Shown here piece after piece: positions 5,741-63,036 of a DNA stretch of 64,000 nucleotides; position 1 is the stretch's first letter; each line of letters starts with the position of its first letter. A model generated the notes under the pieces. It saw only the letters and a list, made by a program, of their open reading frames with translations. It was not told the origin of the DNA and searched no databases. The stretch is from Defluviicoccus sp. Its GTDB lineage: Bacteria; Pseudomonadota; Alphaproteobacteria; MPNO01. The position numbers and the translations under genes are program-made. The stretch lies in NCBI GenBank assembly GCA_028821395.1, contig JAPPGP010000141.1:17491-81490 (forward strand). The letters are read 5' to 3'.

Positions 5741-5774
5741 CCGCGGGCGTTGTGTATGGAAGGCGCTCTGTGGC

Positions 5775-5780
5775 TATAAT
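5775..5780 (+). promoter_or_regulatory. perfect TATAAT hexamer in the divergent Rieske/TRAP intergenic region (possible -10 element)
   Basis: TATAAT lies 43 nt upstream of the TRAP binding-protein ATG (5823). No good -35 element at 17 bp spacing, so this is only a candidate. Confidence 0.25.
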
Positions 5781-5822
5781 CGGCCCGGATACGTATCCAC
5801 TTGACATGGGGAGGAACCCGGG

Positions 5823-32856: not shown

Positions 32857-32933
32857 TGGCGCGCCCGGCAGGATTCGAACCTGCGACCCCGGGATTAGGA
32901 ATCCCGTGCTCTATCCTGCTGAGCTACGGGCGC
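32857..32933 (-). tRNA. tRNA-Arg (anticodon CCT)
   Basis: The reverse complement GCGCCCGTAGCTCAGCAGGATAGAGCACGGGATTCCTAATCCCGGGGTCGCAGGTTCGAATCCTGCCGGGCGCGCCA folds as a cloverleaf. Anticodon stem CGGGA/TCCCG with loop TTCCTAA. Encoded CCA. Confidence 0.95.
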
Positions 32934-32969: not shown

Positions 32970-35066
32970 CTACTGATGGTGGTGCAGCACCTCCGAGTAG
33001 GTCGGGAACGGCCACGCGCGGCCGTCCACCAGGAGCTCCAGCTTGTCCGCCACGTCGCGCGCCGATTGCATGCACGGCTTCAGGGCCTCGTGCGCGTATG
33101 ACGCCGCCTCTCCGGGATCGTCGTGCGGGAAGGCGTCGTACGCATCGGCGAGCTTTTCGGTCTCCGAAAGCAGCTCTTCGACGAGCCCGCGCTTCCTGTC
33201 GAACATCGGCGACTGGAACCCGGAGTCGCGGTCGGCGCGGGTGTCCTCGATGGCGACCGGAAGCACCTGGGTCCTGAGGATGCGCAAGAGCGCGCGCGCC
33301 TCGATGTGGAGCTCGGTGGCGTAAGCCTCCTGCAGCACGCTCTGGCGCGCGGCCAGCTCGTGCTCGTTGAGGATGCCGAGCTCGCCCATCAGCTTGACGT
33401 TCTTCTCCGCCGTCAGGGCCTGGTAGGCTTCCGGGCTGCTCCTGAGGTGGATCAGGGCGTGCTTCTCGGCGTGCTCGTAGAGCGCGTCGGAGTAGCCGTC
33501 CCCGCTGAACAGGGCGCCCTGGTTCTCCTGGATGGTCTCGCGAATCACCTGATCGACGGGCTTGCCGGCGTCGACGTCGTCGCACATGTGCTTCAGGCTG
33601 TCGGCGAGCGCCGCGTTCACCATGGTCAGCGGGAACGCGATGTGCTGGTTGCCGCCGACGGCGCGGAACTCGAAGCGGTTGCCGCACCACGGGAACGGCG
33701 CGGTGCGGTTGCGGTCCTCCAGGTTGGCCCGCACGTCGGCGACCGGGGCCACGATCTCGATCTCCTTGCGCTCGTTTCCGTAGCCCGCGAAGTCGCCGCC
33801 CTCGGCGACCGCCTTCACATGGGCTTCCAGGCGCTCGCCCAGATGCAGCGTGATGATCGCGGGCGGCGCCTCCTGGGCGCCCAGCCGGTGGTCGTTGCCG
33901 GCGGTCGACACGCCGCAGCGCAGCAGGTCGCCGTGCCGGTTGACCCCGCGCAGCAGCGCCGCGACGAAGGCGATGAAACGCCGGTTCTCTTCCGCCGTGT
34001 CCCCCGGCACGAACAGGTTGGCGCCGGTGTCGGTATTGAGCCCCCAGTTGTTGTGCTTGCCGGTGCCGTTGATCCCGGCGAAGGGCTTCTCGTGGAACAG
34101 GATGGTGAATTCGTGGTCGAAGGCGAGGTCGCGAAGCACGTCCATGGCGAGCACGTTGGTGTCCGCCGCCAGGTTCGCGAGGCCGAAGACCGGCGAAATC
34201 TCGTGCTGTGCGGGGGCGACCTCGTTGTGCGTGCAATGGATCGAGATTCCGAGCTCCCACATCTTGTCGCGCGCCTCCGCCATGTAGCGGTTCACCCGGG
34301 GCGACAGCTTGGAGAAATAGTTGCCGTCCATCTCCTGTCCGCGCAGCGGCGCCGCACCCAGCAGCGTGCGCCCGGCGGCCACCAGGTCGGGCCGCGCCAG
34401 GTACTTCTCCCGGTCGATCAGAAAGAATTCCTGCTCCCATCCCACATTGCACACCACCTCCCTGGTCGAGCTGTCGCCGAGCAGCGAGAGCAGCCGCACG
34501 CTCTGCTCGTTGACCGCCATGTCGGCCCGCAGAAGCGGGGTCTTCTGGTCGAGGGCCTCGCCGTTCCAGGTGACGAAGGCGGACGGGATGTAGAGCGTCT
34601 GCCGGTAGACGAAAGGCGGCGATCCGGTGTCCCAGCCGATATAGGCCGCCGCCCGATGGGTCTCGCGCAGCCCGCCATTGGGGAAGGAGGAGCCGTCGGT
34701 CTCGGTCTGGAACAGCTCCGAGCCCGTCAGGTTGATGATCAGGCGATCGGTGGCGAAGTCCACCCCGACGAAGGTCTCCAGCTTCTCGCCATGGATCGCG
34801 CCCCGCATCGGCGAGAACCAGTGCGAATAGCCGATGCAGCCCTTCGACTGGGCCCACTCCCGTATCGACTTGGCCAGCGCGTTGGCGAAATCCCGATCCA
34901 TCGGGACCCCCGTCGCGCGGCACTGGGCGAGTGCGTAATAGACGTCCGGATCGACCAGCTTCTTCAGGATCGCGTCGTCCAGCACATTGCTGTTGATCAT
35001 CGCCAAGGCCGGCGGGAGGGCTACCTCCTGGGTCGGAGCCTCGTGCGTGGAGTGCGTGATTGCCAT
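32970..35066 (-). CDS. glnT: type III glutamine synthetase (GSIII)
   Basis: 698 aa, a size typical of GSIII. N-terminal ...YYALAQCRATGVPMD...SHWFSPMRG and a catalytic region (EQEFFLID, NEVAPAQHEISPVF, HEKPFAGINGTGKHNNW) match GS signatures in the GSIII arrangement. Confidence 0.85.
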   Translation of the reverse strand: MAITHSTHEAPTQEVALPPALAMINSNVLDDAILKKLVDPDVYYALAQCRATGVPMDRDFANALAKSIREWAQSKGCIGYSHWFSPMRGAIHGEKLETFVGVDFATDRLIINLTGSELFQTETDGSSFPNGGLRETHRAAAYIGWDTGSPPFVYRQTLYIPSAFVTWNGEALDQKTPLLRADMAVNEQSVRLLSLLGDSSTREVVCNVGWEQEFFLIDREKYLARPDLVAAGRTLLGAAPLRGQEMDGNYFSKLSPRVNRYMAEARDKMWELGISIHCTHNEVAPAQHEISPVFGLANLAADTNVLAMDVLRDLAFDHEFTILFHEKPFAGINGTGKHNNWGLNTDTGANLFVPGDTAEENRRFIAFVAALLRGVNRHGDLLRCGVSTAGNDHRLGAQEAPPAIITLHLGERLEAHVKAVAEGGDFAGYGNERKEIEIVAPVADVRANLEDRNRTAPFPWCGNRFEFRAVGGNQHIAFPLTMVNAALADSLKHMCDDVDAGKPVDQVIRETIQENQGALFSGDGYSDALYEHAEKHALIHLRSSPEAYQALTAEKNVKLMGELGILNEHELAARQSVLQEAYATELHIEARALLRILRTQVLPVAIEDTRADRDSGFQSPMFDRKRGLVEELLSETEKLADAYDAFPHDDPGEAASYAHEALKPCMQSARDVADKLELLVDGRAWPFPTYSEVLHHHQ

Positions 35067-35313
35067 GACGGTCCTTCCGCGAGAGCCATTTCCGGGAAGG
35101 GAAAGCTAATGCATGCGCGCGAGGTTCACCAAGAAAAACCGCGACCCGCAGCGGCGAAAGCAAGATTGCAATTCATTTGACCTGTTCGGCGAAAATGGAA
35201 AACTATTGAGCACAAGTGCGGCTCGGGATTCCGGCGCGAACGTCGTTGCGCAGGCACGAAACAGGCCACCACAACCGTGGGCCGCCTTTCTGGGAAGGTC
35301 TATAGAACACGCC

Positions 35314-35739
35314 GTGCTCCATCTATCGCTGAACAATGACTTGCGAGAACTTGCCGTCGCCGCGGAGAGAGTCGACGCGTTCTGCGCCGAACACGGCGTG
35401 TCGCCGGATATCGCATTCGCCGTCAACGTGTCGGTCGACGAGCTGCTGACCAACACCATCAGCTACGGTTTCGACGACGGCGATTCGCACCGGATCGAAA
35501 TGACCGTCCGCTTGCAGGACGGCGTGCTGGTGGTCGAGCTGGTGGATGACGCCACGCCCTACGATCCGACCCGGGCGCCGCATCCCGACATCGACGCATC
35601 GATCGAGGACCGCCCGATAGGCGGGCTCGGCGTCCACTTCGTTCGCGCGCTGATGGACGGGTTTCGCTATCGGCGCAGCGACGGGCGCAATATCGTGACC
35701 CTGACCAAGCGAGCGGAAGTCCGCCCGGCGGAGGGCTAG
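35314..35739 (+). CDS. RsbW/SpoIIAB-like anti-sigma-type serine protein kinase (HATPase_c_2)
   Basis: 141 aa from an in-frame GTG at 35314 (the track ORF opens at 35113). N-box VDELLTNTISYG, G1 DDATPYD, G2 GGLGVHFVRALMD. Convergent with the PP2C fusion gene. Confidence 0.75.
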   Translation: MLHLSLNNDLRELAVAAERVDAFCAEHGVSPDIAFAVNVSVDELLTNTISYGFDDGDSHRIEMTVRLQDGVLVVELVDDATPYDPTRAPHPDIDASIEDRPIGGLGVHFVRALMDGFRYRRSDGRNIVTLTKRAEVRPAEG

Positions 35740-35747
35740 CCCGGCGT

Positions 35748-38315
35748 TCACACGTCCTTGCCGTTGTAGCGCAACACGAGACAGGTGATGTCGTCCGACT
35801 GCTCGGCGTCGCCGACGAACTCGCCGACGGCCAGGGTGACGTTGCCGATCACCGTGTCCACCGGCGCTCCCGGGCCGATCGAGAGCGCGCTCTCGAGGCG
35901 GCTCTCGTCGAAGGTTTCGCCCTGAATGTTCATCGCCTCTGAGATGCCGTCGGTATAGAGAAACAGCGTATCGCCGACGCCGAGCGTCACCCGGTTCTCG
36001 TCGTATTCCAGCTCCGGCAGCACACCCACGGCGACGCCGCCGGTCAATGGCAGCGTCTCGATGGCGCCGGTGGTTCGGATGAGGAAGGGCGCGTTGTGAC
36101 CGGCATTGGCGTAGGTAAGAATCCCCGTCTTCGGGTCCAGGATGCCGTAGAACAGGGTCACGAACAGGTCGTGCGGGTTCTCCGACGAGATCCGGTCGTT
36201 GACCACGCGCATGCAGGCGCCGGCCTGGCCGATCTCCTGGGCGCTCGCGCGCATGACAGTCCGCGTGATCGCCATGAAGAACGCCGCGGCCACGCCCTTG
36301 CCGGAGACATCGGCGATCACCAGGCCGAGCCGGCCGTCCGGCAAGCTGAAATAGTCGTAGAAATCGCCGGCCATCTCGCGCGCCGGCGTCATCACCGCGT
36401 CGCCGGAATAGGCGTTATCGGGCGGCAGGGTCTTGGGCAGGATCGCGTGTTGCAGGGAGTGCGCGACCGCGAGCTCGTCTTCCATCCGGCGGTTGGCCTC
36501 GTCGAGCAGGGCGTTCTTGTTCGCCAGGTCGAGCGTGCGCTCGGCGACCAGGGCCTCGAGGTGCTCCCGCCGGGCCTGAACCTCGCGCGCCATGGTCTGG
36601 AAGGTGTGGATCAGCCGTCCGAGCTCGTCGCGCCGGTCGCGGAAGGGGTCGAGCGAGTCGGGCTCGAAGCTGCCCTGGTCCATTTCACCCGCGGCCTGGG
36701 TGAGCGCCGTGACCGGCCGCGTGATCCGGCGGGCCGACATGATCGCGGTCACCGCCCCGATCAGGAAGGCGGCGAGAGTGATCGCGAGTCCGAAATCGAT
36801 GTAGTCGCCCAGCAATTCGTCCAGATGGTCGCGCGGCATGTGGATCACCGCGACGCCGGTGGCGACGCCGCCGCGATCCAGGATGGGCGCCGCGACATGC
36901 AGCGCGTCGTCGCTGATGAAGGACTGCGTGGCCCCCTGGACGGCTCGGCCGGCGAGCGACCTGTCGGACGATCCGAACACCGGGCGCGGTCCGTGGTGCC
37001 CGGCGCCGGCGGCGACCGCGGCGGTGACCTTGAGGGATTCGTCGACCACCCAGATCGCCCGTATGCCGGGCTGAGCGGCCAGCGAGTCGAGCGCCGCGGC
37101 GAGGCCGATGGTCTCGCGCAGGCCCGTCGTCTTGTTGGCCACGCTGCCCACCAGAACGGTCCGCCCTTGACGGGAGCGAACCCCGAGATAGCGCAGCGGC
37201 AGCTCCAGGCCGTCCCTGGGCACGGACTTGAACGAGACCGAGAAGCGCCGCCCGGAGATCAGGGTCTGGAGGACCGGTCCATCCATTTCCCCGAGCGAAA
37301 TGTCGACGCCGGCCTGGCCGATCCCGTTGGTCGCGCGCACCGACGGCGTTCCCTCGGCGTCCAGCACCCAGACATCGTCGACGGCGGTGTTCGCCGTGAT
37401 TTCCGCGAGCTCGATGGAGAGCGCGCGGTCGTCGTCCCCCAGAATGTCGGCAAGTTGGCCCACCGCGATGGCTTGCGCCTCGTTCTCCGACACGATCACG
37501 CGGTCGATCTCGTCCGCGATCACCCCGACCCGGTTGGCTTCGCTCGCGATCAGCCCCGCGACCATCCGGGCCTGGTTTTCCGCCTGGTCGATCAGCGTGT
37601 CGCGCGCCAGCAATCCCAGCGCCACCGCGACGCTGAGAATGGCGATACCCACCGATCCCGTGACGATCAGGATCAGATGCCGCGACAGGCTGATGCTGGT
37701 ATCGCGGCGGCGCACATGGGCGAACCGCATCACCAGGGCGACGAGGCCGGCGAAACCGAGGAACCACCCCATCGCGTAGAGGTAGATCCAGAAAGAGAGC
37801 TGCGGTCGGGCGAGCGCGGCGATCACCGTGTCGACCCGGAACACCATCTCGGGGACGCCGATGACGGAGGCGGTGGCCGACGCCATCACGATGATCAGGA
37901 AGTAGTTGGTCCACGACGGCAGGAACAGCAGCGCCTCGGTGGTCTGGCCCCGCCTGAGATGCCGCAGCGCGGCGAGCGCGTTGTCGGAGACAAATCCCGC
38001 GACCGCGATCGAGAGCGCCAGCGACGCCTTGAGCCATACCGGCACGGTGAACGCGATGCCGAAGACCACGAAGCTGCCCGGGACCATATAGGCGAGGTAG
38101 AACAGCATGACGAAGGTCGGCGCGCTGGCTGCGACCAGCGTCAGCGCGCTGGCGCCCTGGCTCACGCGGCGAATGCGGCCGCCGCGCAATGCCGCGAGCG
38201 CCGCCCCGAGAACCGTGCCGATCGCCATCGCGACCAGCGAAACCAGCATGTTCCAGCCGAATCCGACCGCCAGATACGGCGTCCAGGTAATCAGGACGTC
38301 GACGACGTTGGGCAT
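35748..38315 (-). CDS. fusion protein: polar-amino-acid ABC permease-type TMD + TM-flanked periplasmic sensor domain + HAMP + PP2C/SpoIIE (RsbU-like) phosphatase
   Basis: 855 aa. Residues 1-200 align by eye with HisM/GlnP-type permeases (...LPSWTNYFLIIVMASATASVIGVPEM versus [26 protein letters not shown]). TM helices lie near 213-236 and 507-527 and flank a ~270-aa hydrophilic domain. HAMP (RRITRPVTALTQAAGEMDQGSF...ELGRLIHTFQTMA). PP2C motifs MAGDFYDYF, IADVSGKGVAAAFF, LYTDGISEA, QSDDITCLV. Confidence 0.85.
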   Translation of the reverse strand: MPNVVDVLITWTPYLAVGFGWNMLVSLVAMAIGTVLGAALAALRGGRIRRVSQGASALTLVAASAPTFVMLFYLAYMVPGSFVVFGIAFTVPVWLKASLALSIAVAGFVSDNALAALRHLRRGQTTEALLFLPSWTNYFLIIVMASATASVIGVPEMVFRVDTVIAALARPQLSFWIYLYAMGWFLGFAGLVALVMRFAHVRRRDTSISLSRHLILIVTGSVGIAILSVAVALGLLARDTLIDQAENQARMVAGLIASEANRVGVIADEIDRVIVSENEAQAIAVGQLADILGDDDRALSIELAEITANTAVDDVWVLDAEGTPSVRATNGIGQAGVDISLGEMDGPVLQTLISGRRFSVSFKSVPRDGLELPLRYLGVRSRQGRTVLVGSVANKTTGLRETIGLAAALDSLAAQPGIRAIWVVDESLKVTAAVAAGAGHHGPRPVFGSSDRSLAGRAVQGATQSFISDDALHVAAPILDRGGVATGVAVIHMPRDHLDELLGDYIDFGLAITLAAFLIGAVTAIMSARRITRPVTALTQAAGEMDQGSFEPDSLDPFRDRRDELGRLIHTFQTMAREVQARREHLEALVAERTLDLANKNALLDEANRRMEDELAVAHSLQHAILPKTLPPDNAYSGDAVMTPAREMAGDFYDYFSLPDGRLGLVIADVSGKGVAAAFFMAITRTVMRASAQEIGQAGACMRVVNDRISSENPHDLFVTLFYGILDPKTGILTYANAGHNAPFLIRTTGAIETLPLTGGVAVGVLPELEYDENRVTLGVGDTLFLYTDGISEAMNIQGETFDESRLESALSIGPGAPVDTVIGNVTLAVGEFVGDAEQSDDITCLVLRYNGKDV

Positions 38316-38317
38316 CG

Positions 38318-39925
38318 CTACGTCCCGTGCGCCCTACGTTCCCAGCCGCGGAGCGCCCACACCGTGGCGAAGACCAGCAGGAAGTAGCACAGCAGCAGCA
38401 GGTTCATCATCACGACGTCATTGCCCTTCTCGGCGACGATCGCCGTGCTGGCGTGCACCAGCTCCGGCAAGGCGAGCGTGCTCGCCATCCCGGTTGCCTT
38501 GACGATGTTGACGGAATTGCCCGCCACGGCGGCGTGGCACAGATCCAGCGCCCGGCGGAACTCGCCCACGGAGAACCCCAGCCTGCCGCCGGGACCGGCC
38601 GCCACGTCCGCGGCAAGGGAGAACGACACGGCGTTGCTGGCCGCGGCGTAGAGCGACAGCACTGCGGCGGCAAGCGAGAACGCATCGAGCGTGAAGCCGT
38701 AAGCGAACAGGATGCCGCCGATCCCGAAGAAGAAGACGTATAGCTGAAGCAACGGGGGCGTCATCCGGAGCACCGCGCACAGCCCCTGCAGGCACGGCGC
38801 CACGACGACGGTCCGGCGATGCAGGATCCAGCCGAAGAGGGCGCCCAGCACGATGCTTCCCACGACCGTCGCGACGGAGAGCGCGACCGTCAGGAACAGG
38901 CCGTGGAGAAATACGTTGCGGTCGAGCGGATCGTAGACCGGGCTCACGTCGAGACCCGTCGATTCCTTGAACGCCATGGATATCGCCGACAGGCCGCCCA
39001 GCTCCTGGCTGGTGACGAGCGCGCGTTCCCGGCAGGCCAGCGGCCAGCTTCCCACATCGTCGCGACGGCATACGAATTCGCCGGATTCGTCGGTCTCCCG
39101 CCAGGTCTCGCGCGCTTTCCGCAAGTAGGGCGAGGGGGGCAGGTTCCACAGCTTCTCCAGCTCCTGGAGGAACCCCTCGCGGTGCCACTTCGCCAGGGTG
39201 TCGCCGAGCAGACGGTCGAGCGGTCCGCCCCCCTCCTCCTTCCTGATCGCGATCGCCCAGGGCGCCACGAAGCGCGTCGGCAGCGACACCGCAAACCCGT
39301 CCCACTCCCCGCTCGCCAGGGCGCTCAACAGGTTGACCTCGTCGTACAACCAGCCGACGCAGTGACCGTTTCGCAAGGCGAGCGCGGCTTCGCGGGTGGA
39401 GTTGAGGGAGATGGTGGTGACGAGGAGGCGTTGGGCGGCCAGGCGGTTCCATATCGAGCCCTGGACGCTGCACAGCGTCCGACCGCGCAGGTCCTCCCAC
39501 GAGGAGATTCCCGAGTCTTCCCGCATCAGCACGTTGGCGCCGTCGCCGTAATACTGCGGTTCCACCATGTGGACCAGCCGCCGGCGGGCGAGGTTGTCGC
39601 CCAGCGTCGCGACGACGACATCGATCTCGCCCCGCGCCAGCTTCTGCAGCCGGTTCGCGCTGGTCACCGGGGTCAGCCGCACCGGCACGCCGACGGCCTC
39701 CGCCAGGCCGCCCGCGACGTCGACGTCATAGCCCACCAGCTTGCCGGACTCGTTGCGCTCCCCGAAGGGGTGGTAGTCCGCCTTCACGCCGACGATCAGG
39801 TGGCCCCGCGCCCGTATTTCGTCGAGCCGGTCGGCCGCCGCCGGGCCCGCGCCCAGCAACCAGGCGGTGCTCAACAGGAGCACATGAACGAGAAGCGAAA
39901 ATCGCCGGAGCGAACCTTTCGTCAT
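38318..39925 (-). CDS. fusion protein: SBP_bac_3-type periplasmic amino-acid-binding domain + polar-amino-acid ABC permease-type TMD
   Basis: Preferred ATG is at 39925, giving a signal peptide MTKGSLRRFSLLVHVLLLSTAWLLGAGPAAA. An in-frame GTG at 39946 is the alternative. SBP region: RGHLIVGVKADYHPFGERNESGKLVGYDVDVAGGLA. C-terminal TMD: VLRMTPPLLQLYVFFFG ... AGNSVNIVKATGMASTLALPEL. The stop lies 2 nt before the start of the next gene. Confidence 0.85.
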   Translation of the reverse strand: MTKGSLRRFSLLVHVLLLSTAWLLGAGPAAADRLDEIRARGHLIVGVKADYHPFGERNESGKLVGYDVDVAGGLAEAVGVPVRLTPVTSANRLQKLARGEIDVVVATLGDNLARRRLVHMVEPQYYGDGANVLMREDSGISSWEDLRGRTLCSVQGSIWNRLAAQRLLVTTISLNSTREAALALRNGHCVGWLYDEVNLLSALASGEWDGFAVSLPTRFVAPWAIAIRKEEGGGPLDRLLGDTLAKWHREGFLQELEKLWNLPPSPYLRKARETWRETDESGEFVCRRDDVGSWPLACRERALVTSQELGGLSAISMAFKESTGLDVSPVYDPLDRNVFLHGLFLTVALSVATVVGSIVLGALFGWILHRRTVVVAPCLQGLCAVLRMTPPLLQLYVFFFGIGGILFAYGFTLDAFSLAAAVLSLYAAASNAVSFSLAADVAAGPGGRLGFSVGEFRRALDLCHAAVAGNSVNIVKATGMASTLALPELVHASTAIVAEKGNDVVMMNLLLLCYFLLVFATVWALRGWERRAHGT

Positions 39926-39942
39926 CGTGAAACAGGCACCGA

Positions 39943-40701
39943 TCACGGCCGCGCCACGATCAGAAAACCGTAGCCGACCGCCGCCGGGGCGACTGCGCAG
40001 GCCAGATCGTCCAGCTTACCCAGCAGGGAGTTGCCGACCACCGCGGTCTCCGGCAGCAGGCTTTCCGCCTCGACGCTCTCGATTCGGAAGCCGGCGGTCG
40101 ACAATTCATCGCGTGCCTCGGCGGGCGAGAACAGGTGATAGAACATCTCGATACTACCAGCCTCGGAACGGCGCGCGTACAAAACATCGCCGGGCTCCAG
40201 ATCGCCGTCCCGCACCATCGGGGCTGCGGCGCGCTGTTCCGCGTGGAACCTGCGTCGCGCATTGGGCAGGCTGAGCACCAGAACGCCGTCCGGCTTCAGG
40301 ATTTCCCGGATCGAGGCGAGCACAGCCGCGCGCTCCTTCCGCCCCGCTATATGGGCCAGGACGCCGAATGCGAGCAGCGCGAGGTCGAATCCGCGCGGAA
40401 ACGACTTGGCCAGGGCCGCCGCGTCGGCGTTGCGCACCGAGAGACGTTCGCCGCCGATGAAGGTCGCCAGACGCTCCGACAGCATGCGGCAGGCGGTCGG
40501 GCAGACGTCGTAAGCCACGCCCGTCGCGCTTGTGTGTTGCAGGAGGGGCAGGGTGTAGCGCCCCGTCCCCGCGCCGAAATCGACAAAGCGGCCGTCCGCC
40601 GGCATCAGGCGCAGCACCCTCCGCAACGTGCGCCGGTTCGGGGCCGGATAACGGCGGTCGTAGAGCCCCGATGCCAGATACTCATCGTAGCTGTGGGACA
40701 T
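39943..40701 (-). CDS. class I SAM-dependent methyltransferase
   Basis: 252 aa from the ATG at 40701 (alternative upstream ATG at 40809). SAM motif I VDFGAGTGRYTLPL and post-I/II motifs DLALLAFGVLAHI, LKPDGVLVLS. First gene of the minus-strand operon. Confidence 0.75.
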   Translation of the reverse strand: MSHSYDEYLASGLYDRRYPAPNRRTLRRVLRLMPADGRFVDFGAGTGRYTLPLLQHTSATGVAYDVCPTACRMLSERLATFIGGERLSVRNADAAALAKSFPRGFDLALLAFGVLAHIAGRKERAAVLASIREILKPDGVLVLSLPNARRRFHAEQRAAAPMVRDGDLEPGDVLYARRSEAGSIEMFYHLFSPAEARDELSTAGFRIESVEAESLLPETAVVGNSLLGKLDDLACAVAPAAVGYGFLIVARP

Positions 40702-40918
40702 GTCCGGCGCGATCGCCTGAGATTCGGCCACGCCGGCGGCCACGCAATCCTTGATGCCGCTGGGTGAGATGTTGGCGTCTCCGCTGGCCCCATCGAGATG
40801 CCGACGCATCACGTGGAGATATGAAATACGGGTCGCGCCGCCCGGTAGCGGAGAGCGGTGCTCAAATTCTCTCGAACTCGGATAAATTCTGCCCGGGCTC
40901 GAGATTGTCGCTGCCTCC

Positions 40919-40930
40919 ATTGTTGACAAT
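40919..40930 (+). promoter_or_regulatory. palindrome ATTGTTGACAAT containing a TTGACA -35-like hexamer; related half-sites at 40904-40909 (ATTGTC) and 40968-40973 (GACAAT)
   Basis: Read directly in the unusually AT-richer 368-bp divergent intergenic region between the methyltransferase/sensor operon and the SBP-amt genes. AATAGT/ATAGTA lies 18-19 nt downstream of TTGACA. Confidence 0.3.
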
Positions 40931-41069
40931 TTTGGTCCCAGGTTCAAATAGTAAGTCCAGACCCCTCGACAATCCAAGCCGGGTTGCGACGTTCTGACGC
41001 AGGGATGGTGGGTCGGTGCCGCGTTGTGAGCGGCATCCCGGATCGGTCGGTCAGGAGGAGCAAGGAAGG

Positions 41070-41978
41070 GTGAAGCTGCGACGAGCGGGCCGGTTGAGCG
41101 TCCCGAGGACGGCGGTAGCGCTGATCGGTGCGGTGCTGACGACGGTCGGCGTCGCGGCGACGGCGGCGGCAGAGAGCGTGCTGAGCCGAATCGCCGAGGA
41201 CGGATTGCTCCGCGCCGGCACCCGGGCCAGCGCCGCACCGTTCGCCCAGAGAATGCCGACCGGAGAATTTCGCGGATTCTCCGTCGATCTTCTGCAGGAG
41301 ATTCGGGCCGCGGTGCAGCGCGAGGTGGGCCGCCCGGTGCGCATCGAGCTTCATGAAGTCACGCCGAGCGACCGTCTGCAGCGGGTCGCCCGGGGCGAGC
41401 TCGATATCGTCTGCGGCATCACCACGCCGACCTGGGACAGGGAGGCGACCGTCGATTTTTCGCTTCCCTTCTTCCGCGACGGTACCCGGGTGATGGTGTA
41501 CCGGCGCGGCGCCGGAGAGACCGTCGATGTCGCGAAGCTCAATATCGGCGTCGTCAAGGGCACCACGACCGTCGACGTTCTCAAGGACAGCCTCCCGGGG
41601 ACGCGGCTCAGCGAATTCCCCAACATGGCCGCGGCGATGAGCGGGTTCGAGAAAGGCGAGGTCGACGGGGTCGCCAATGTCGGCGTCGTGCTGCTCGGTC
41701 TTGCCGAGCGCAGCGAGCCACGGCGCAGCGTCGTGCTGCTGCCGAGGACCCGAGCCCTGGCGACGGAAAGCCTCGCCTGTGTGCTGCCGCAGAACGACAG
41801 CCGCTGGCGGGATCTGGTCAACCGAACCCTGGTCGGCATGTTCGGCAACGTGCAGCAGTTCAGGGGACGCTACGAAGAAGTCTACAATCGTTGGTTCGGG
41901 CGGGACGGCGCGTTGTTCTACCCGCTCGATCGCGCGACCCGCGACTATCTCGCCGACGTGTCCATCTGGGCCAAGTGA
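41070..41978 (+). CDS. periplasmic amino-acid-binding protein (SBP_bac_3 family), free-standing
   Basis: Preferred GTG is at 41070, just downstream of AGGAGG and GGAAGG RBS-like elements (the track ORF opens at 41016). Signal peptide (..TAVALIGAVLTTVGVAATAAA). LRAGTRASAAPFAQ...FRGFSVDLLQEI...GELDIVCG is typical of the family. Confidence 0.8.
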   Translation: MKLRRAGRLSVPRTAVALIGAVLTTVGVAATAAAESVLSRIAEDGLLRAGTRASAAPFAQRMPTGEFRGFSVDLLQEIRAAVQREVGRPVRIELHEVTPSDRLQRVARGELDIVCGITTPTWDREATVDFSLPFFRDGTRVMVYRRGAGETVDVAKLNIGVVKGTTTVDVLKDSLPGTRLSEFPNMAAAMSGFEKGEVDGVANVGVVLLGLAERSEPRRSVVLLPRTRALATESLACVLPQNDSRWRDLVNRTLVGMFGNVQQFRGRYEEVYNRWFGRDGALFYPLDRATRDYLADVSIWAK

Positions 41979-42109: not shown

Positions 42110-43666
42110 GTGACTTCCCGAGAACGGCTGGATGGCTGCGCCGTGAGCGCCAATGCGAACCGGAGGGCATGTAATATCATGTCGCACATCGCGAATTCGA
42201 TCGGATCGATGGCCACCGAACGCAGGCCGGGGGGTGGATCGACCCCGTCAGGCGCCACGCGGTTCGATGCGGGACACCGCGACGGCGCTCGGGACGACGG
42301 CGTCTCGCCAGGATGGCGGCGCGCCGCCCCGCTCGGCCTCGCCGTCGCTGCCCTGCTGCTGCTTCCGGCGGGCGCGCATGCGGCGGTGGCCGACGAGACG
42401 CAATTCGTCCTGAACAGCTTCTCGTTCCTGATCTGGGGCGCGCTGGTGATGTGGATGTGCGCCGGTTTCACCATGCTCGAATCGGGCTCGGTGCGCACCA
42501 AGAACGCCTCGGTCATCTGCCTCAAGAATATCGGCCTCTATTCGATCGCCGGGTTGATGTTCTACCTCGTCGGCTACAACATCATGTATGTCGGGGTCCC
42601 CGAAGGCGGCTGGTTCGGCACGCTGACGCTGTTCTACGGCACCACCGGCGAAGAAATGGCGCTGCTCGGCGGCGGCGACGACGCGGCCAAGGCGGGCGCC
42701 GCGGTGGTCAAGAACGGCTACTCGACGATGTCCGACTGGTTCTTCCAGATGGTGTTCGTCGCCACCACCGCCTCGATCGTCTCCGGCACGCTGGCCGAGC
42801 GGGTCAAGCTCTGGTCCTTCCTGCTGTTCATCACCGTGCTCACGGCGATCATCTACCCGGTCATCGGGTCGTGGACCTGGGGCGGCGGCTGGCTGTCGGA
42901 GATGGGCTTCCAGGACTTCGCCGGTTCGACGATCGTCCACTCGACGGGCGGCTGGGCGGCGCTCGCCGGGGCGCTGGTGGTCGGCGCGCGGAAGAACAAG
43001 TTCCGCGCCGACGGCAGCGTGAAAGTCACCCCGCCATCCAACGTGCCCGCGGTGACGCTGGGCGTGTTCATTCTCTGGCTCGGCTGGTTCGGGTTCAACG
43101 GCGGCTCGCAGCTCGCGCTCGGCGGCGCCGCCGATGCGGTGGCGATCAGCAATATCCTCGCCAACACCAATCTCGCCGCGGCCGCGGGCGTGATCGCCGC
43201 GATGGCGCTGTCGCGTCCGGTTCTCGGGCGCGTCGATCTTCTCGCCAGCCTGAACGGCGCGATCGGCGGCCTGGTGGCGATCACCGCGGGGCCCGACATC
43301 GTCCAGCACTACTGGGCGGTGATAATCGGCGCGGTCGGCGGCTGCATCGTGGTCCTCGGGATCAAGCTGCTCGACCGGCTCAAGGTCGACGACGTGGTCG
43401 GGGCGGTTCCGGCGCATCTGTTCGCCGGCGTCTGGGGCACGCTCGCGGTGTGCATCGCCGCGGGCGGCGATATAGGTGTGCAGATCACCGGCATCCTGGC
43501 CATCGGGGCGTTCGTGTTCGCCGCCTCCTGGGTGGTATGGTGGGCGATCGATGCGACCATCGGCGCCCGCGTCACGCCGATAACGGAAGAGCTGGGGCAG
43601 GATGTCGCGGAGCTGGGAATCGAAGCCTATCCGGAATTCGTCGTCGTCCCCGACATGGACGACTGA
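42110..43666 (+). CDS. amt: ammonium transporter (Amt family)
   Basis: The core from ...FLIWGALVMWMCAGFTMLESGSVRTKN to ...DVAELGIEAYPEF shows Amt signatures (FAGSTIVHSTGGWAALAGALVVG, WFGFNGGS). The start is uncertain (ATGs at 42110, 42179, 42209). A cleavable signal-like segment LGLAVAALLLLPAGAHA is present. Confidence 0.9.
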   Translation: MTSRERLDGCAVSANANRRACNIMSHIANSIGSMATERRPGGGSTPSGATRFDAGHRDGARDDGVSPGWRRAAPLGLAVAALLLLPAGAHAAVADETQFVLNSFSFLIWGALVMWMCAGFTMLESGSVRTKNASVICLKNIGLYSIAGLMFYLVGYNIMYVGVPEGGWFGTLTLFYGTTGEEMALLGGGDDAAKAGAAVVKNGYSTMSDWFFQMVFVATTASIVSGTLAERVKLWSFLLFITVLTAIIYPVIGSWTWGGGWLSEMGFQDFAGSTIVHSTGGWAALAGALVVGARKNKFRADGSVKVTPPSNVPAVTLGVFILWLGWFGFNGGSQLALGGAADAVAISNILANTNLAAAAGVIAAMALSRPVLGRVDLLASLNGAIGGLVAITAGPDIVQHYWAVIIGAVGGCIVVLGIKLLDRLKVDDVVGAVPAHLFAGVWGTLAVCIAAGGDIGVQITGILAIGAFVFAASWVVWWAIDATIGARVTPITEELGQDVAELGIEAYPEFVVVPDMDD

Positions 43667-43767: not shown

Positions 43768-44106
43768 ATGGATTTGACGACTGAACGAAGCGAAAACGTC
43801 GTGTGCGTGGACGTGAAGGGGCGAATCGACGGATCCACCGCCGTCGCCTTCGAGGAGTCCGTGCGCAACGCACTGGAGGAATCCGACCGCGCCATGATCA
43901 TGGATTTCCGGGAGCTCGCCTATATCAGCAGCGCCGGGCTCCGGGTGATCCTGCTGACGGCGAAGTCGCTGCAGAGCCAGGACGCGAAGCTGGTGCTGTG
44001 CTCGCTCTCCGATCAGATTCGCGAAGTGTTCAAGATCAGCGGCTTCGACAAGCTTCTGCCGATTCACGAGACCAGGGAAGAGGCGCGCGCATCCCTCGGC
44101 GCCTGA
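43768..44106 (+). CDS. STAS-domain anti-sigma-factor-antagonist-like protein (RsbV/SpoIIAA type)
   Basis: 112 aa from the in-frame ATG at 43768. Single STAS domain with a conserved phospho-acceptor context, DFRELAYISSAGLRVILL, and C-terminal FKISGFDKLLPIH. Confidence 0.85.
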   Translation: MDLTTERSENVVCVDVKGRIDGSTAVAFEESVRNALEESDRAMIMDFRELAYISSAGLRVILLTAKSLQSQDAKLVLCSLSDQIREVFKISGFDKLLPIHETREEARASLGA

Positions 44107-59947: not shown

Positions 59948-60805
59948 ATGACGGAAATCTCCACCGTCTTCGTCGAGGGGACGCCGCGGCTTGCCCTCGA
60001 CCGGGCCGGGTCGGGGCCGCTGGTGCTTTTCCTGCACGGCATCGGCGGCAACCGGAGCAACTGGACCGCGCAGATCGAAGCCCTCTGCGACTCCTTCCAC
60101 GCCGTCGCCTGGGACGCGCGCGGCTACGGCGAGTCGGACGACTACGAGGGCAAGCTCGATTTCGGGGATTTCGCGCGCGACGCGCTCCGGGTGCTCGACC
60201 GCTTCGGCGCCGAGACGGCGCATTTCGTCGGGCTCTCGATGGGCGGGCGGATCGCCCAGGACTTTTGCGCCCGTTACCCCGACCGGGTGGCGACGCTGGT
60301 GCTGTGCGACACGATGTCGGATTTCCGCGACTCCATGACGCCCGAGAAGCGCGCCGAGTTCATCCGGCTGCGCCAGGCGCCGCTCAAGGCGGGCAAGGAG
60401 CCGCGCGACATCGCCGACGCGCTGGTCGACAGCCTGGCCGGGCCCGGCGCCGACGAGCCCGCCCGCCGGCGGCTCTGGGACAGCATCGCCGCGCTCCACA
60501 AGGAGTCGTACCTCAAGACCATCGAGGCCTCGCTCTCCTTCGACCGGTCGGCGGAGATCGACCGGATCTCGGTTCCGACGCTGCTGATCTACGGCGAGCA
60601 CGACCGGCTGACACCGCCTTCCATCGGAGAGGCTTTGCACCGACGCATCGCCGGCTCCGAGCTCGCGGTGATCGAGGATGCCGGACATCTTTCCAACATC
60701 GAACGGCCCGAGGCCTTCAACGCGGCGCTGCTCGCCTTTCTCTCGAAACACCGCGACCGCGCCGTCGCGCGCCGCACGGAATCCGCAGGGAGGACCGCAG
60801 AATGA
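59948..60805 (+). CDS. alpha/beta hydrolase
   Basis: 285 aa from the ATG at 59948, preceded by GGAGGA. LFLHGIGGN, GLSMGG, C-terminal AGHLSNIERPEAF. Confidence 0.85.
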   Translation: MTEISTVFVEGTPRLALDRAGSGPLVLFLHGIGGNRSNWTAQIEALCDSFHAVAWDARGYGESDDYEGKLDFGDFARDALRVLDRFGAETAHFVGLSMGGRIAQDFCARYPDRVATLVLCDTMSDFRDSMTPEKRAEFIRLRQAPLKAGKEPRDIADALVDSLAGPGADEPARRRLWDSIAALHKESYLKTIEASLSFDRSAEIDRISVPTLLIYGEHDRLTPPSIGEALHRRIAGSELAVIEDAGHLSNIERPEAFNAALLAFLSKHRDRAVARRTESAGRTAE

Positions 60806-62958
60806 ACCCCGATCTCCTCGTTCCCGACGCGACCGGTGGATGCACCGCCTTGCGCGCGGCGGGCGGGACCGACGGCCTCGCGGTCGGCGCTCTGGTCGAC
60901 CCCCACGAGACGCCGACGCCGCTCGCCCGGCGTCTCGACGGCGCCGCCATCCGGGTCCGGGGCTATCTCGCGCCCTCGCTCAGCCCCCGGGCGGGACGCT
61001 TTCTGCTCACCGAGGCCTCGCTTGCGCCCTGCCATCTCTGCGGCAACATCCACGGCGTTGCTGTCGGCCTCGCCGTCGAGCCGTCCGCGCCGATCGCGGC
61101 GGATATCGCGATGCACGAGGCGGTGGAGGTCGCGGGCGTGCTTTCCCTCTCCGCGCCCGAGGCGGACGGCCCGGTGCGCGACTTCGCGCTCCGCGACTGC
61201 ACCGTCGTCCGGCTGCCGCGCCCCGACTCCGCCGCGGGGTCGGAGGCGAAAGCGTGGCTCCGCCGCTTCCTCGACGAGCGCTCCGACCCGGTCGCGCGGA
61301 CCCGCCCGATGCGCCCGGCGCGCCCGGTGACCGGTGCCGGTCCCGCCGACACCGTGCTCACCAACGGCCATATCCGGACCGTCGACCGGCTCTCGACGAC
61401 CGCCGAGGCGGTCGCCATACGCGGCGGCCGCTTCATCGCGGTGGGCGATGCGGATGAGGTCGCGACCCATGCGGGGCCGGATACCGAGATCCTCGACCTG
61501 GCGGGAAGGACCGCGGTGCCGGGGCTGATCGATTCCCACATCCACCAGTTCTATCTCGGCCTCAACCTGCCGACGGTGCAGCTACTCGACGCGCGGTCGG
61601 TCGCCGACGTCCAGGCGCGGATCGCCGAGCGGGCCGCCGCGACGCCGGACGGCGAATGGATCGTCGGCACCTCCGGCTGGCACGAGAGCCTGCTTGCCGA
61701 GGGGCGCATGCCCACCCGCTGGGAGCTCGACGAGGCCGCGCCCGACAACCCGGTGATCGTCCCGCGCGGCGGCCATGTGGTGACCGTCAACTCGAAGGCG
61801 CTGGAACGCGCCGGGATCGCCGACGACACGCCCGATCCGGTCGGCGGCGTGATCGTCCGCGATCCGGCGAGCGGCGCGGCCACTGGCGTGCTGCTCGAGA
61901 GCGCCGCCTATTTCGCCCGCCGCGTGGCGCCCCTGATCCCGCCCGAGGACGAGATGGCGGATCTCCTGAAGGCGGCGATGAAGGAGCTGAATTCCTACGG
62001 AGTCGTCAGCGTGACCGACCCGGTGATCGACGAGACCAGCATGGCGGTCTACCGCCGGCTGCGCGACGAGGACGCGATCACCGTCCGCAGCGAGCTGCTC
62101 TACAAGGCCGCCGACAGGGCGGGCACCGAGCGCGGCATCGCCGCCATGCAGGCAGAGACCGGCGACGACATGCTCTGCTTCCCCGGCATCAAGTTCATGC
62201 TCGACGGCGGCGTCGAGGGGGCGAGGCTCGCCGAGCCCTACCGCATCGTGCCGGGAGAACAGCCGCACGCCGATTACCGTGGCCTGCTGATGACCCCGCC
62301 CGGCGGCGAGGAGGAGTTCGTCGAGTGCCTGAAGCTGGTGGCCGAGGCCGGTATGCAGGCCCAGACCCATGGCGTGGGCGACGAGGCGATCGACGTCATC
62401 ATTCGCTGCTACGCGGCGGTGGCCGAGCAGACCCCCATCGCCGATCTGCGCTGGACTTTGATGCACGTCTTCCTGCCGACAGACGAGGCGATCGAGACCA
62501 TGCGCCGCATCGGCGTGCTGGCGACCGTCCAGGACCATCCCGTCCTGCTCGGCCACAACCAGCGCCGCTGGTGGGGGGACGAGAGGGCGGCGGCGGCGAT
62601 CCCGATCCGCAGGCTGATCGATTCCGGCCTCCTGGTCGGCGGCGGCACCGACGGCCCCGTGGTACCGGTCGATCCGTTCCTGTCGATGTGGTGGATGGTC
62701 ACGCGTGGGACGCTGCTGGGCTATACGCTCGGCGAGGACCAGGCGATCTCCGCCGCCGAGGCGCTTGAGCTCTACACCGTCAACAACGCGCGGATCATGG
62801 GCGTGGAAGACGAGCGCGGCTCGATCGAGCCCGGCAAGCAGGCCGACCTCGCGGTCCTGTCGCAGGACATCGTCGAAATCGAGGCGGACGAGATCCGCAA
62901 TACCCGCGCTTTGCTCACCCTGGTCGGCGGCAAGGTGGTCCATCGCGACGGCATGTGA
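60802..62958 (+). CDS. amidohydrolase-3 (YtcJ-like metal-dependent hydrolase) with a ~180-aa N-terminal extension
   Basis: 718 aa. The ATG at 60802 overlaps the upstream stop (ATGA). From ~aa 180 onward: TVLTNGHIRTVD...VPGLIDSHIHQ...QTHGVGDEAID...GGTDGPV...EPGKQADLAVL, typical of Amidohydro_3. An internal ATG at 61309 could be an alternative start. Confidence 0.8.
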   Translation: MNPDLLVPDATGGCTALRAAGGTDGLAVGALVDPHETPTPLARRLDGAAIRVRGYLAPSLSPRAGRFLLTEASLAPCHLCGNIHGVAVGLAVEPSAPIAADIAMHEAVEVAGVLSLSAPEADGPVRDFALRDCTVVRLPRPDSAAGSEAKAWLRRFLDERSDPVARTRPMRPARPVTGAGPADTVLTNGHIRTVDRLSTTAEAVAIRGGRFIAVGDADEVATHAGPDTEILDLAGRTAVPGLIDSHIHQFYLGLNLPTVQLLDARSVADVQARIAERAAATPDGEWIVGTSGWHESLLAEGRMPTRWELDEAAPDNPVIVPRGGHVVTVNSKALERAGIADDTPDPVGGVIVRDPASGAATGVLLESAAYFARRVAPLIPPEDEMADLLKAAMKELNSYGVVSVTDPVIDETSMAVYRRLRDEDAITVRSELLYKAADRAGTERGIAAMQAETGDDMLCFPGIKFMLDGGVEGARLAEPYRIVPGEQPHADYRGLLMTPPGGEEEFVECLKLVAEAGMQAQTHGVGDEAIDVIIRCYAAVAEQTPIADLRWTLMHVFLPTDEAIETMRRIGVLATVQDHPVLLGHNQRRWWGDERAAAAIPIRRLIDSGLLVGGGTDGPVVPVDPFLSMWWMVTRGTLLGYTLGEDQAISAAEALELYTVNNARIMGVEDERGSIEPGKQADLAVLSQDIVEIEADEIRNTRALLTLVGGKVVHRDGM

Positions 62959-63036
62959 GGCCGTGTGAAGCGGCCCCGCTTGTGCCGGCGGCGGCGGGGT
63001 GGAACACTTGGCCGCCATGCAATCGGGCGCGGACAG

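Follow-up and report, generated by a model that had tools for sequence, protein, structure and literature searches.

A PP2C phosphatase fused to a degenerate ABC-importer domain in Defluviicoccus: candidate subunit of an ATPase-less membrane receptor

Can a gene that begins like an amino acid permease and ends like a PP2C phosphatase be taken at face value, and does its product transport, signal or both? The question is raised by one open reading frame in a 64-kb stretch of Defluviicoccus sp. DNA (the window), whose product an earlier note, made from the sequence alone, had described as an ABC permease domain (TMD) with a shortened EAA loop, followed by a periplasmic domain, a HAMP linker and a PP2C domain, and had read as a transceptor. 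The protein is 100% identical to the NCBI entry "MAG: SpoIIE family protein phosphatase [Defluviicoccus sp.]". From sequence comparisons, we lean towards the view that the gene encodes, fused into one chain, two subunits of a complex for membrane signalling, derived from a polar-amino-acid ABC-importer relic and acting as a non-transporting receptor that controls partner switching. The features on which the argument draws are listed in Table 1.

Table 1. Features of the fused gene and its neighbourhood; positions are numbered along the window
Feature	Residues	Positions	Strand	Evidence or remark
Whole fused gene	855 aa	35748-38315	-	TMD, TM6, dCache-like domain, TM7, HAMP, linker, PP2C
Degenerate 5-TM polar-amino-acid ABC-importer TMD	1-205	37701-38315	-	NCBIfam (sub-threshold), ArtQ profile, Foldseek
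EAA/coupling-loop remnant (RGQTTEALL)	122-130	37926-37952	-	20 residues below canonical length
TM6 (in to out)	~210-236	37608-37688	-	Hydropathy peak 2.55; model helix 210-246
Periplasmic dCache-like (double PDC) domain	~237-506	36798-37607	-	AlphaFold and Foldseek fold match
TM7 (out to in)	~507-527	36735-36797	-	Hydropathy 2.28, then ARRITR
HAMP	528-580	36576-36734	-	Pfam PF00672, E=2.5e-10, 40.9 bits, cutoff 25
Linker HAMP to PP2C (putative coiled coil)	581-658	36342-36575	-	Inside SiaA-model alignment 510-850
PP2C/SpoIIE phosphatase domain	659-850	35766-36341	-	Pfam PF07228, E=1.1e-47
SBP-TMD partner gene	542 aa	38318-39946	-	Pfam, NCBIfam, ArtQ alignment; directly upstream of fused gene
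SBP_bac_3 domain of partner	50-267	39146-39799	-	
Second degenerate TMD, in partner	~345-538	38333-38914	-	
Class I SAM-dependent methyltransferase		39946-40788	-	Pfam Methyltransf_12/23/25/11; usually first operon gene
RsbW-like serine kinase (HATPase_c_2)		35293-35739	+	Pfam PF13581, E=2e-25; convergent with fused gene
STAS anti-sigma-factor-antagonist protein		43768-44103	+	tblastn, 69% identity to STAS of locus L001; TIGR00377
Free SBP_bac_3 protein		41016-41978	+	Pfam; divergent from operon
Ammonium transporter		42110-43666	+	Pfam PF00909, E=2.5e-94; syntenic within Rhodospirillales
Type III glutamine synthetase		32970-35066	-	Pfam GSIII_N, Gln-synt_C, Gln-synt_C-ter; syntenic within Rhodospirillales

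The single-polypeptide architecture is borne out by the open reading frame, Pfam, NCBIfam, profile comparison and AlphaFold/Foldseek, and the third-position GC content of the gene (GC3 = 0.90) is similar to that of its neighbours. We surveyed 80 species-level GTDB genomes, taking in up to 9 kb either side of the locus, and found the TMD-phosphatase fusion in 12, which form two clades in the TMD tree and in the phosphatase tree alike; elsewhere, two genes side by side encode the TMD (210-230 aa) and the phosphatase (~650 aa). A phosphatase lies within 9 kb in 73 of the 80 loci, and in four whose flanks are complete the TMD pair is present but no phosphatase is. Where the genes are split they share 4 nt (GTGA/ATGA), and it is exactly at this overlap that the fused forms join the two frames, an arrangement in which a one-base error could produce a fusion; a frameshift or mis-assembly in the Defluviicoccus assembly, which the earlier note had itself raised as a danger to its reading, would thus mimic what we see. 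This origin is effectively refuted, and its probability is negligible: besides the 12 species representatives, 23 protein clusters of 853-855 aa (66-100% identity) carry the fused frame in independent assemblies, some of them with Mb-scale contigs or chromosome-level records, and the linker sequences of the fused forms have diverged after fusion. The proposed single polypeptide is therefore real, with the restriction that most genomes encode its halves separately; judged from these loci, it is confined to certain lineages, in which two adjacent and translationally coupled genes of the operon have fused.

In the split homologues, as comparison across the junction shows, TM6 belongs to the phosphatase as its N-terminal TM helix. 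Hydropathy and the positive-inside rule recover TM6, TM7 and an N-out/C-in TMD, in agreement with the topology suggested before, in which the TMD ends inside, one helix leads out and one leads back to HAMP. The HAMP domain, likewise expected, starts directly after TM7 and scores above the Pfam gathering threshold, and the PP2C domain aligns with model positions 1-191 of 192 (162.9 bits against a cutoff of 25) and contains all of the metal-binding Asp motifs that had been read from the translation (GDFYD, ADVSGKG, YTDG and SDDIT). The nearest solved PP2C structures are those of Rv1364c, RssB and SiaA; orthology with SiaA itself was rejected, since the corresponding model (NF038263) gives 104.8 bits against a cutoff of 700 and aligns over HAMP-PP2C only. 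For the ~270-aa periplasmic domain, Pfam returns no match in the fused protein, dCache_1 included, and a homologue at another locus (L088) matches dCache_1 weakly. The AlphaFold model of this domain (pLDDT 80.5) has the secondary structure of a dCache domain, with a long N-terminal helix and two PDC modules between two TM helices, and Foldseek pairs it with the dCache ligand-binding domains of TlpQ (E 2e-7), vpHK1S-Z8, KinD, PctD, Tlp3 and Mlp24, with probability 1.0 and E-values down to 2e-7, yet with TM-scores of just 0.3-0.45. On the predicted fold we call the domain dCache-like.

The N-terminal domain does not reach the curated thresholds for type I importer permeases: Pfam BPD_transp_1 has no match in the fused protein at E<=0.1, TIGR01726 (HEQRo_perm_3TM) gives 23.5 bits, under its cutoff of 42.2, and precomputed Pfam domains are absent from all members of the TMD family. 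Despite the silence of BPD_transp_1, the alignment by eye of residues 1-200 with HisM/GlnP-type permeases proved sound. NCBIfam reports a cystine permease (E=2e-7), the family profile matches ArtQ (PDB 4YMS_D) over its full length (E=1.1e-8), and the best Foldseek match of the AlphaFold model (pLDDT 78.6) is again ArtQ (E 3e-5, TM 0.64), followed by MetI, DppC, OppB/C and MalF. By profile and predicted structure, residues 1-205 belong with the polar-amino-acid ABC permease domains and have the core 5-TM importer fold, N-out/C-in.

What this domain lacks is most of the EAA loop, with its EAA motif and coupling helices for ATPase docking. The deletion, put at roughly 18 residues in the earlier alignment, comes to 20 in three: phmmer spans ArtQ chain positions 122 to 145 with query positions 128 to 131, the family profile gives ArtQ 8+2+10 additional residues in the EAA region, and MAFFT sets QWEAAxSLAFxRxQTLxxIIxPQCIKRMLPPWMN of the nearest canonical permeases against TTEA-(20)-LLFLPSWTNY. 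In the AlphaFold model, TM3 (93-121) and TM4 (131-149) are connected by nine residues with one helical turn (125-128). The deletion is invariant throughout the TMD family, and the loop remnant is conserved (R121, A128, F131, P133 and W135), so that a cytoplasmic partner may still dock there.

A second TMD is encoded directly upstream, in a gene that is conserved in all loci and whose stop lies 2 nt ahead of the ATG of the fused gene. Its product consists of a signal/anchor, an SBP_bac_3 domain, whose best PDB matches include GlnP substrate-binding domains, a linker and a degenerate TMD homologous to the EAA-deleted one (hhalign 93%). The EAA region of this partner TMD is ~10 residues short, variable in length and among its least conserved segments, with a top-residue frequency of 0.48 vs 0.82 for TM4. 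In both TMDs conservation peaks in TM3 and TM4, a pattern in the alignments that suggests the TMDs are more than a membrane anchor.

Of the components of a complete type I importer, the cognate SBP is thus present, both on the partner TMD and as a free SBP_bac_3 gene, and a cognate ATPase encoded alongside the permeases is found neither in the window nor in the flanks of the 80 loci. Within 25 kb of the fused gene there is no cognate ABC ATPase (ABC_tran) gene; the sole ABC ATPase of the window is 25 kb off, adjoining an amidohydrolase gene. Across the 80 loci no ATPase is a conserved neighbour: ATPase genes do occur in the flanks, at varying positions, and of six sampled for type, one was untyped and five were unrelated (MalK/TOBE, metal-ABC or Opp), which, with their inconsistent positions, led us to reject them as cognate subunits. 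That no such gene lies nearby does not prove that none exists, since some importers share an ATPase encoded at a distance, as with MsiK in actinomycetes.

These observations bear on whether the module is a true transceptor, whose two TMDs would still import an amino acid, powered by a remotely encoded ATPase or in some other way, with the phosphatase reading the flux in the manner of BceS with BceAB. In favour of this, the importer fold is preserved in both TMDs, the highly conserved TM3 and TM4 are the helices that line the pathway in canonical importers, SBPs are retained, and at one locus (L056) the next gene downstream of the free SBP gene, on its strand, is an ABC_tran gene. We nevertheless regard continued transport as quite improbable, given the 20 coupling-loop residues deleted from one TMD, the short and poorly conserved matching region of the other and the lack of a conserved ATPase neighbour. 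Taken together, the deletion, the unconserved second loop and the missing ATPase gene argue for a non-transporting receptor; the loss of loop and ATPase would speak only indirectly against substrate translocation. The part of the transceptor reading that stands is the link to signalling, and the part in doubt is transport.

The fused protein probably does not act alone. The conserved operon runs from a methyltransferase through the SBP-TMD fusion and the EAA-deleted TMD to dCache-HAMP-PP2C, with an RsbW-like kinase, a STAS protein and a free SBP nearby; together with the SBP-TMD partner, these appear to complete the set. The methyltransferase gene, whose stop codon shares nucleotides with the GTG that starts the SBP-TMD gene, is immediately upstream of the latter in most loci and a few kb downstream in the Kaistia/Mesorhizobium group, and among the 80 loci it was undetected in some from Rhodospirillales. 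The kinase is syntenic across loci and matches NCBIfam RsbW/SpoIIAB below threshold; its start codon is uncertain, the frame opening at 35113. The STAS protein scores 89.9 bits with TIGR00377 (cutoff 53.45) and carries the serine motif YISSAGLR, and is presumed to be the substrate of phosphatase and kinase. A complete partner-switching set of the RsbU/RsbV/RsbW type is thus present in the window: a PP2C domain, a HATPase_c_2 kinase and a STAS protein with a candidate serine. No switch target, be it a sigma factor, a diguanylate cyclase or another protein, was found among the Pfam-scanned frames at ~28-46 kb of the window. The free SBP is conserved with the module, and its best NCBIfam match is the orphan SBP GrrP, below cutoff. 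A promoter and terminator scan of the operon gave nothing above shuffled expectation.

In the reading that we favour, the TMD pair would no longer transport. A ligand-loaded SBP, tethered and/or free, would dock on it and shift its conformation, the ligand probably being a polar amino acid or a related nitrogen compound. The change would pass within the membrane to TM6 and TM7 of the phosphatase, and from there through HAMP to the PP2C domain, which would dephosphorylate the STAS protein phosphorylated by the kinase and so throw the partner switch; the dCache-like domain may serve as a second input or as the SBP docking site. For the output, synteny with the ammonium transporter (amt) and type III glutamine synthetase genes points to nitrogen assimilation in Rhodospirillales, where the products of these two genes are candidate targets; in Accumulibacter the candidates are GlgX-linked proteins. 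The genes around the module differ between clades. More tentatively, we propose an ATPase-less type I importer turned dedicated receptor, whose SBP-loaded TMD dimer signals directly to the phosphatase and to a GHKL-type serine kinase sitting at the former ATPase face. Stoichiometry is a difficulty: HAMP and dCache sensors work as homodimers, whereas two different TMDs suggest a heterodimer.

The phosphatase has a dCache-like sensor domain of its own, so the TMD need not be the sole input, and that domain might even do all of the sensing. The TMD pair would then just anchor and assemble phosphatase, kinase and SBPs, or the SBPs would dock on the dCache-like domain as LuxP does on LuxQ, with no signal passing through the TMDs. 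Taken alone, the phosphatase is laid out as TM-sensor-TM-HAMP, the standard arrangement in autonomous receptors, and the fusion partner of the TMD (phosphatase, kinase or SBP) varies with lineage, as might be expected of a scaffold. We consider this alternative unlikely, since a pure anchor would need neither an SBP tethered to one TMD nor two paralogous TMDs with near-invariant TM3/TM4 motifs in three proteobacterial classes.

Separately, each part of the proposed receptor has precedents. PAAT type I importers such as Art(QN)2 (PDB 4YMS) and HisQMP2 share the 5-TM fold, paired TMD genes and SBP_bac_3 receptors, and in GlnPQ of Lactococcus the SBP is fused N-terminally to the TMD of GlnP, as in the SBP-TMD partner; unlike them, the module has no ATPase gene, one EAA loop shortened by 20 aa and the other degenerate, and TMDs below the Pfam/TIGRFAM thresholds that are embedded in a signalling operon. 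Transporter folds serve as receptors in UhpC/UhpB, yeast Ssy1, Snf3/Rgt2, CbrA (an SLC5 domain with a histidine kinase) and Amt-kinase fusions, at times covalently joined to a signalling enzyme. Their ancestors are secondary transporters or channels, and their output goes mostly to histidine kinases, whereas the module combines an ABC importer TMD pair and SBP with PP2C partner switching. In BceAB-BceS and PstSCAB-PhoU-PhoR an ABC membrane complex also informs a membrane signalling protein, but those co-sensors are complete, ATP-hydrolysing transporters whose activity is sensed, and the module is missing ATPase and coupling loop. SiaA (SiaABCD), RsbU-type phosphatases and Rv1364c share the TM-periplasmic domain-TM-HAMP-PP2C layout, with kinase and STAS partners as in the module; association or fusion with an ABC permease relic sets the module apart from them, and neither a diguanylate cyclase nor a sigma factor gene was found beside the fused gene in the window. 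In LuxP-LuxQ, TorT-TorS and ChvE-VirA, a periplasmic binding protein docks directly on the membrane sensor and passes its signal (the periplasmic part of LuxQ has a tandem PAS/PDC fold); unlike the module, they involve no permease-derived TMDs.

A full-text literature search, with most subscription journals outside its coverage, returned nothing on this architecture, and the operon is apparently undescribed. Receptors descended from transporters are known among the secondary transporters (UhpC, Ssy1, Snf3/Rgt2), and ABC co-sensors as complete transporters (BceAB, Pst); an ABC importer relic wired to PP2C partner switching without ATPase and coupling loop would, if our reading is true, be a new way to build a receptor and a class of bacterial transmembrane receptor not described before, with lineage-specific fusions. 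It would also be a natural experiment in which the TMD-SBP part of an importer works without ATP. Fusions have recurred: TMD-phosphatase twice, TMD-SBP, and, in other lineages and independently of the phosphatase fusions, EAA-deleted TMD-kinase, of which one (P0269) is found in two assemblies and another (P0275) lies at a locus that also encodes dCache-SpoIIE, SBP, SBP-TMD and STAS proteins. These fusions predict contacts between the subunits, which makes the hypothesis directly testable.

Loci with the module come from Alpha-, Beta- and Gammaproteobacteria, and cultured strains of Kaistia (Kaistia soli DSM 19436), Zavarzinia (Zavarzinia aquatilis), Mesorhizobium, Aquamicrobium and Oryzicola are among the carriers; complete genomes with it include OY763326.1 and OZ242200.1. 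It is also found in the main phosphorus- and glycogen-accumulating organisms of wastewater (Accumulibacter, Competibacteraceae and Defluviicoccus), where nitrogen-assimilation or glycogen genes adjoin it, so that it may control metabolism relevant to wastewater treatment.

The module around the fused gene is apparently undescribed and would be a transporter-derived receptor; the fused gene is a lineage-specific form of it. Residues 1-205 of the fused protein make up a degenerate membrane domain (TMD) of the ABC importer type; the earlier note had aligned residues 1-200 by eye with HisM/GlnP-type permeases. Pfam matches no domain, BPD_transp_1 included, in residues 1-527, and NCBIfam returns sub-threshold polar-amino-acid permease matches to the N terminus (cystine permease, E=2e-7), with TIGR01726 at 23.5 bits against a cutoff of 42.2. 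In a phmmer search of PDB sequences the sole match is ArtQ (4YMS_D) from the amino-acid importer Art(QN)2, and a 23-member family profile improves this match, which spans the full length, to E=1.1e-8. The AlphaFold model of residues 1-247 (pLDDT 78.6, pTM 0.70) likewise has ArtQ as its best Foldseek match (E 3e-5, TM 0.64), followed by MetI, DppC, OppB/C, and MalF, all type I importer TMDs.

Three alignments agree that the EAA (ATPase-coupling) loop of this TMD is short by 20 residues, close to the roughly 18 first estimated: the phmmer alignment breaks at query residues 128/131, opposite ArtQ residues 122/145, in the profile alignment ArtQ carries 8+2+10 additional residues where the family passes from "EA" to "LPxW", and MAFFT alignment with the nearest canonical permeases, taken from an exhaustive search, opens a single clean gap of 20 columns. 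Canonical relatives read "QWEAAxSLAFxRxQTLxxIIxPQCIKRMLPPWMN" and the window TMD "TTEA-(20)-LLFLPSWTNY"; in the exhaustive search the canonical relatives cover ~20 residues more than the family profile at the same positions, and the deletion is invariant throughout the TMD family. In the 1-247 model, TM3 (93-121) is linked to TM4 (131-149) by nine residues that include one helical turn, too few to accommodate the pair of short coupling helices that canonical importers have in this loop.

The module also has no dedicated neighboring ATPase. The one window gene with Walker A and LSGGQ motifs (62965-63834, within the region 60265-63834, +) is 25 kb off; it follows a large amidohydrolase-family gene and appears unrelated. 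Across 80 homologous loci, covering up to 9 kb of flank on either side, ABC_tran genes are absent or variably placed, and five of the six neighboring ATPase genes that we typed are MalK/TOBE, metal-ABC, or Opp, the other (at locus L023) having no diagnostic accessory domain. Only in Aquamicrobium zhengzhouense (L056), with an ABC_tran gene (5133-6290, -) directly downstream of the free substrate-binding protein (SBP) on the same strand, might the ATPase gene belong to the module. The second TMD, in the partner SBP-TMD protein, shares homology with the EAA-deleted TMD (hhalign, 93%) and, by profile, with ArtQ (E=1.9e-6). The EAA region of this second TMD falls ~10 residues short of that of ArtQ, with a greater shortfall in the Kaistia group, and contains no EAA motif. 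Canonical importers have the EAA loop as their signature conserved motif; in this TMD only one other segment is conserved as poorly (top-residue frequency 0.48, versus up to 0.82 in TM3/TM4 motifs such as "NIVKATGMAS..PEL"). The system falls below ABC importer sequence thresholds and lacks two defining features of a functional importer.

Hydropathy places five TM segments in residues 1-200, TM6 at ~210-236, and TM7 at ~507-527, and together with the K/R-rich loops (43-56, 113-134, 197-214, and 528-545) this fits a TMD that is N-out and C-in, with the middle domain in the periplasm and HAMP in the cytoplasm, in line with the topology of the earlier note. The modeled periplasmic domain (pLDDT 80.5, 81 sequences in the alignment) begins with a long helix and continues with two alpha/beta modules. 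A Foldseek search, suggested in that note, returns dCache-type ligand-binding domains (TlpQ, vpHK1S-Z8, KinD, PctD, Tlp3, Mlp24, and TlpC; probability 1.0, E down to 2e-7) with TM-scores of only 0.3-0.45, and Pfam dCache_1 weakly matches a homologue from another locus. All four acidic PP2C motifs named earlier occur in the translation, which is identical to the NCBI entry "MAG: SpoIIE family protein phosphatase [Defluviicoccus sp.]"; the third-position GC of the gene (0.90) matches that of surrounding genes.

Features of the module in the window (nucleotide positions, or residues of the fused protein)
Feature	Position	Strand	Remarks
Type III glutamine synthetase	32970-35066	-	module's other side
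RsbW-like HATPase_c_2 kinase	35293-35739		converges on operon
Fused gene	35748..38315	-	855-aa ORF
HAMP	residues 528-580		Pfam
SpoIIE/PP2C	residues 659-850		Pfam, full-length, E=1e-47
SBP-TMD	38318-39946	-	542 aa: signal/anchor, SBP_bac_3, second degenerate TMD
SAM methyltransferase, class I	39946-40788	-	usual first operon gene
Free SBP_bac_3	41016-41978	+	diverges from operon
amt, ammonium transporter	42110-43666	+	after free SBP
STAS anti-sigma-antagonist	43768-44103		next to amt; ISSAGLR serine motif

The single polypeptide is a lineage-specific fusion of two neighboring genes. Homologues of its first 530 residues form two classes, one of 23 clusters (853-855 aa, 66-100% identity) and one of ~95 clusters (645-690 aa) matching from residue ~207 onward only, at whose loci a separate 210-230-aa gene directly upstream encodes the EAA-deleted TMD, without a Pfam domain. 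In the closest split relatives the stop codon of the TMD gene and the start codon of the phosphatase gene overlap, as GTGA or ATGA, and it is precisely at this overlap that the reading frames are united in the fused genes. The linker is "...HVRRRDTSISLSRHL" in the clade to which the window belongs and "...RLGGASGSLSRHL" in another. Among the 80 loci, from GTDB species representatives, 12 are fused, 61 split, and 7 without the phosphatase (3 of these being short contigs); the 12 fused loci and the 23 clusters of 853-855 aa exclude an assembly artefact, in line with the single TMD-to-PP2C polypeptide first described. L065, L069, and L084 have no phosphatase within 9 kb, and L059 (record OZ219856.1, which also holds L023) carries the SBP, SBP-TMD, and TMD genes a second time within one genome, followed by kinase and STAS genes, with no phosphatase. 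In neighbor-joining trees of TMD and phosphatase, built without bootstrap, fused forms group in two distinct clades, both with split forms as sisters, suggesting two fusion events or one fusion with reversions.

The EAA-deleted TMD family is small: in exhaustive HMMER searching of 1.84 billion cluster representatives, 52 pass E<=1e-30, and 242 pass E<=1e-10. Among the best matches, P0269 (two independent assemblies: L086 1088-2242, L087 227-1381) and P0275 (L088 7001-8107) join this TMD, in other lineages, to an RsbW-like HATPase_c_2 kinase in place of the phosphatase, the P0275 locus also carrying dCache-SpoIIE, SBP, SBP-TMD, STAS, and GGDEF genes. At the sequence level, the strongest evidence that the three would act as one complex is that the TMD is repeatedly joined covalently to phosphatase or kinase. 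Other fusions are P0273 (TMD and SBP_bac_3) and the more distant P0353, P0363, and P0402 (~650 aa), in which a related TMD (E 1e-18 to 1e-23) precedes a C-terminal NMT1_3 binding-protein-like domain.

We infer that the paired TMDs do not transport and serve as a receptor whose conformation would be altered by SBP docking; the change would pass via TM6/TM7 to HAMP and PP2C, and PP2C and kinase would set the phosphorylation state of STAS. As the SBPs belong to the SBP_bac_3 family, they probably bind a polar amino acid or a compound related to one. HAMP and dCache sensors are homodimers, and the two different TMDs suggest a heterodimer; the assembly could be 2:2 or two separate homodimers. The module resembles GlnPQ or Art(QN)2 minus the ATPase, transporter-like sensors (UhpC, Ssy1, Snf3/Rgt2, and CbrA), the ABC co-sensors BceAB and Pst, and HAMP-PP2C phosphatases such as SiaA; SiaA orthology was rejected (104.8 versus 700 bits). 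Transporter-derived receptors are known as a kind, and what appears to be undescribed is the wider module with its fused form; a full-text literature search of incomplete coverage found no description of this architecture.

The window operon comprises the methyltransferase, SBP-TMD, and fused genes, the methyltransferase stop overlapping the SBP-TMD start and the SBP-TMD stop lying 2 nt ahead of the fused gene's ATG; with its neighbors it holds a complete partner-switching set. The module recurs in Rhodospirillales, Kaistia, Mesorhizobium, Aquamicrobium, Oryzicola, Zavarzinia, Bosea, Competibacteraceae/Contendobacter, and Accumulibacter, in three gene orders (TMD-phosphatase directly; TMD, kinase, phosphatase; TMD, free SBP, phosphatase), and the family as a whole is over-represented in wastewater phosphorus-/glycogen-accumulating organisms (Accumulibacter, Contendobacter, and Defluviicoccus). 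The methyltransferase, which has no specific family assignment or part in the proposed mechanism, lies a few kb downstream in the Kaistia/Mesorhizobium group and was not detected in some Rhodospirillales loci; its mechanical ORF call (39943-41238, 431 aa) probably has an over-extended start. The best NCBIfam match of the free SBP is TIGR04262, the "orphan" extracellular substrate-binding-like protein GrrP (131 bits, below the 190 cutoff).

In Accumulibacter and Competibacteraceae (L071 13353-18524; L072, L075, L077, L082, and L083), STAS, STAS, and kinase genes lie 3-6 kb downstream, interleaved with GlgX-type isoamylase and GlcNAc-2-epimerase-like genes. In Rhodospirillales (L001, L006-L013, L018, L020, L035, and L047-L049), type III glutamine synthetase and ammonium transporter genes repeatedly flank the module, and the STAS gene adjoins amt, a synteny suggesting a nitrogen-related output or input. 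In the window, a tRNA-Arg (anticodon CCT; 32857-32933, -) between the epimerase and type III glutamine synthetase genes accounts for a tRNA-like peptide in a spurious overlapping ORF.
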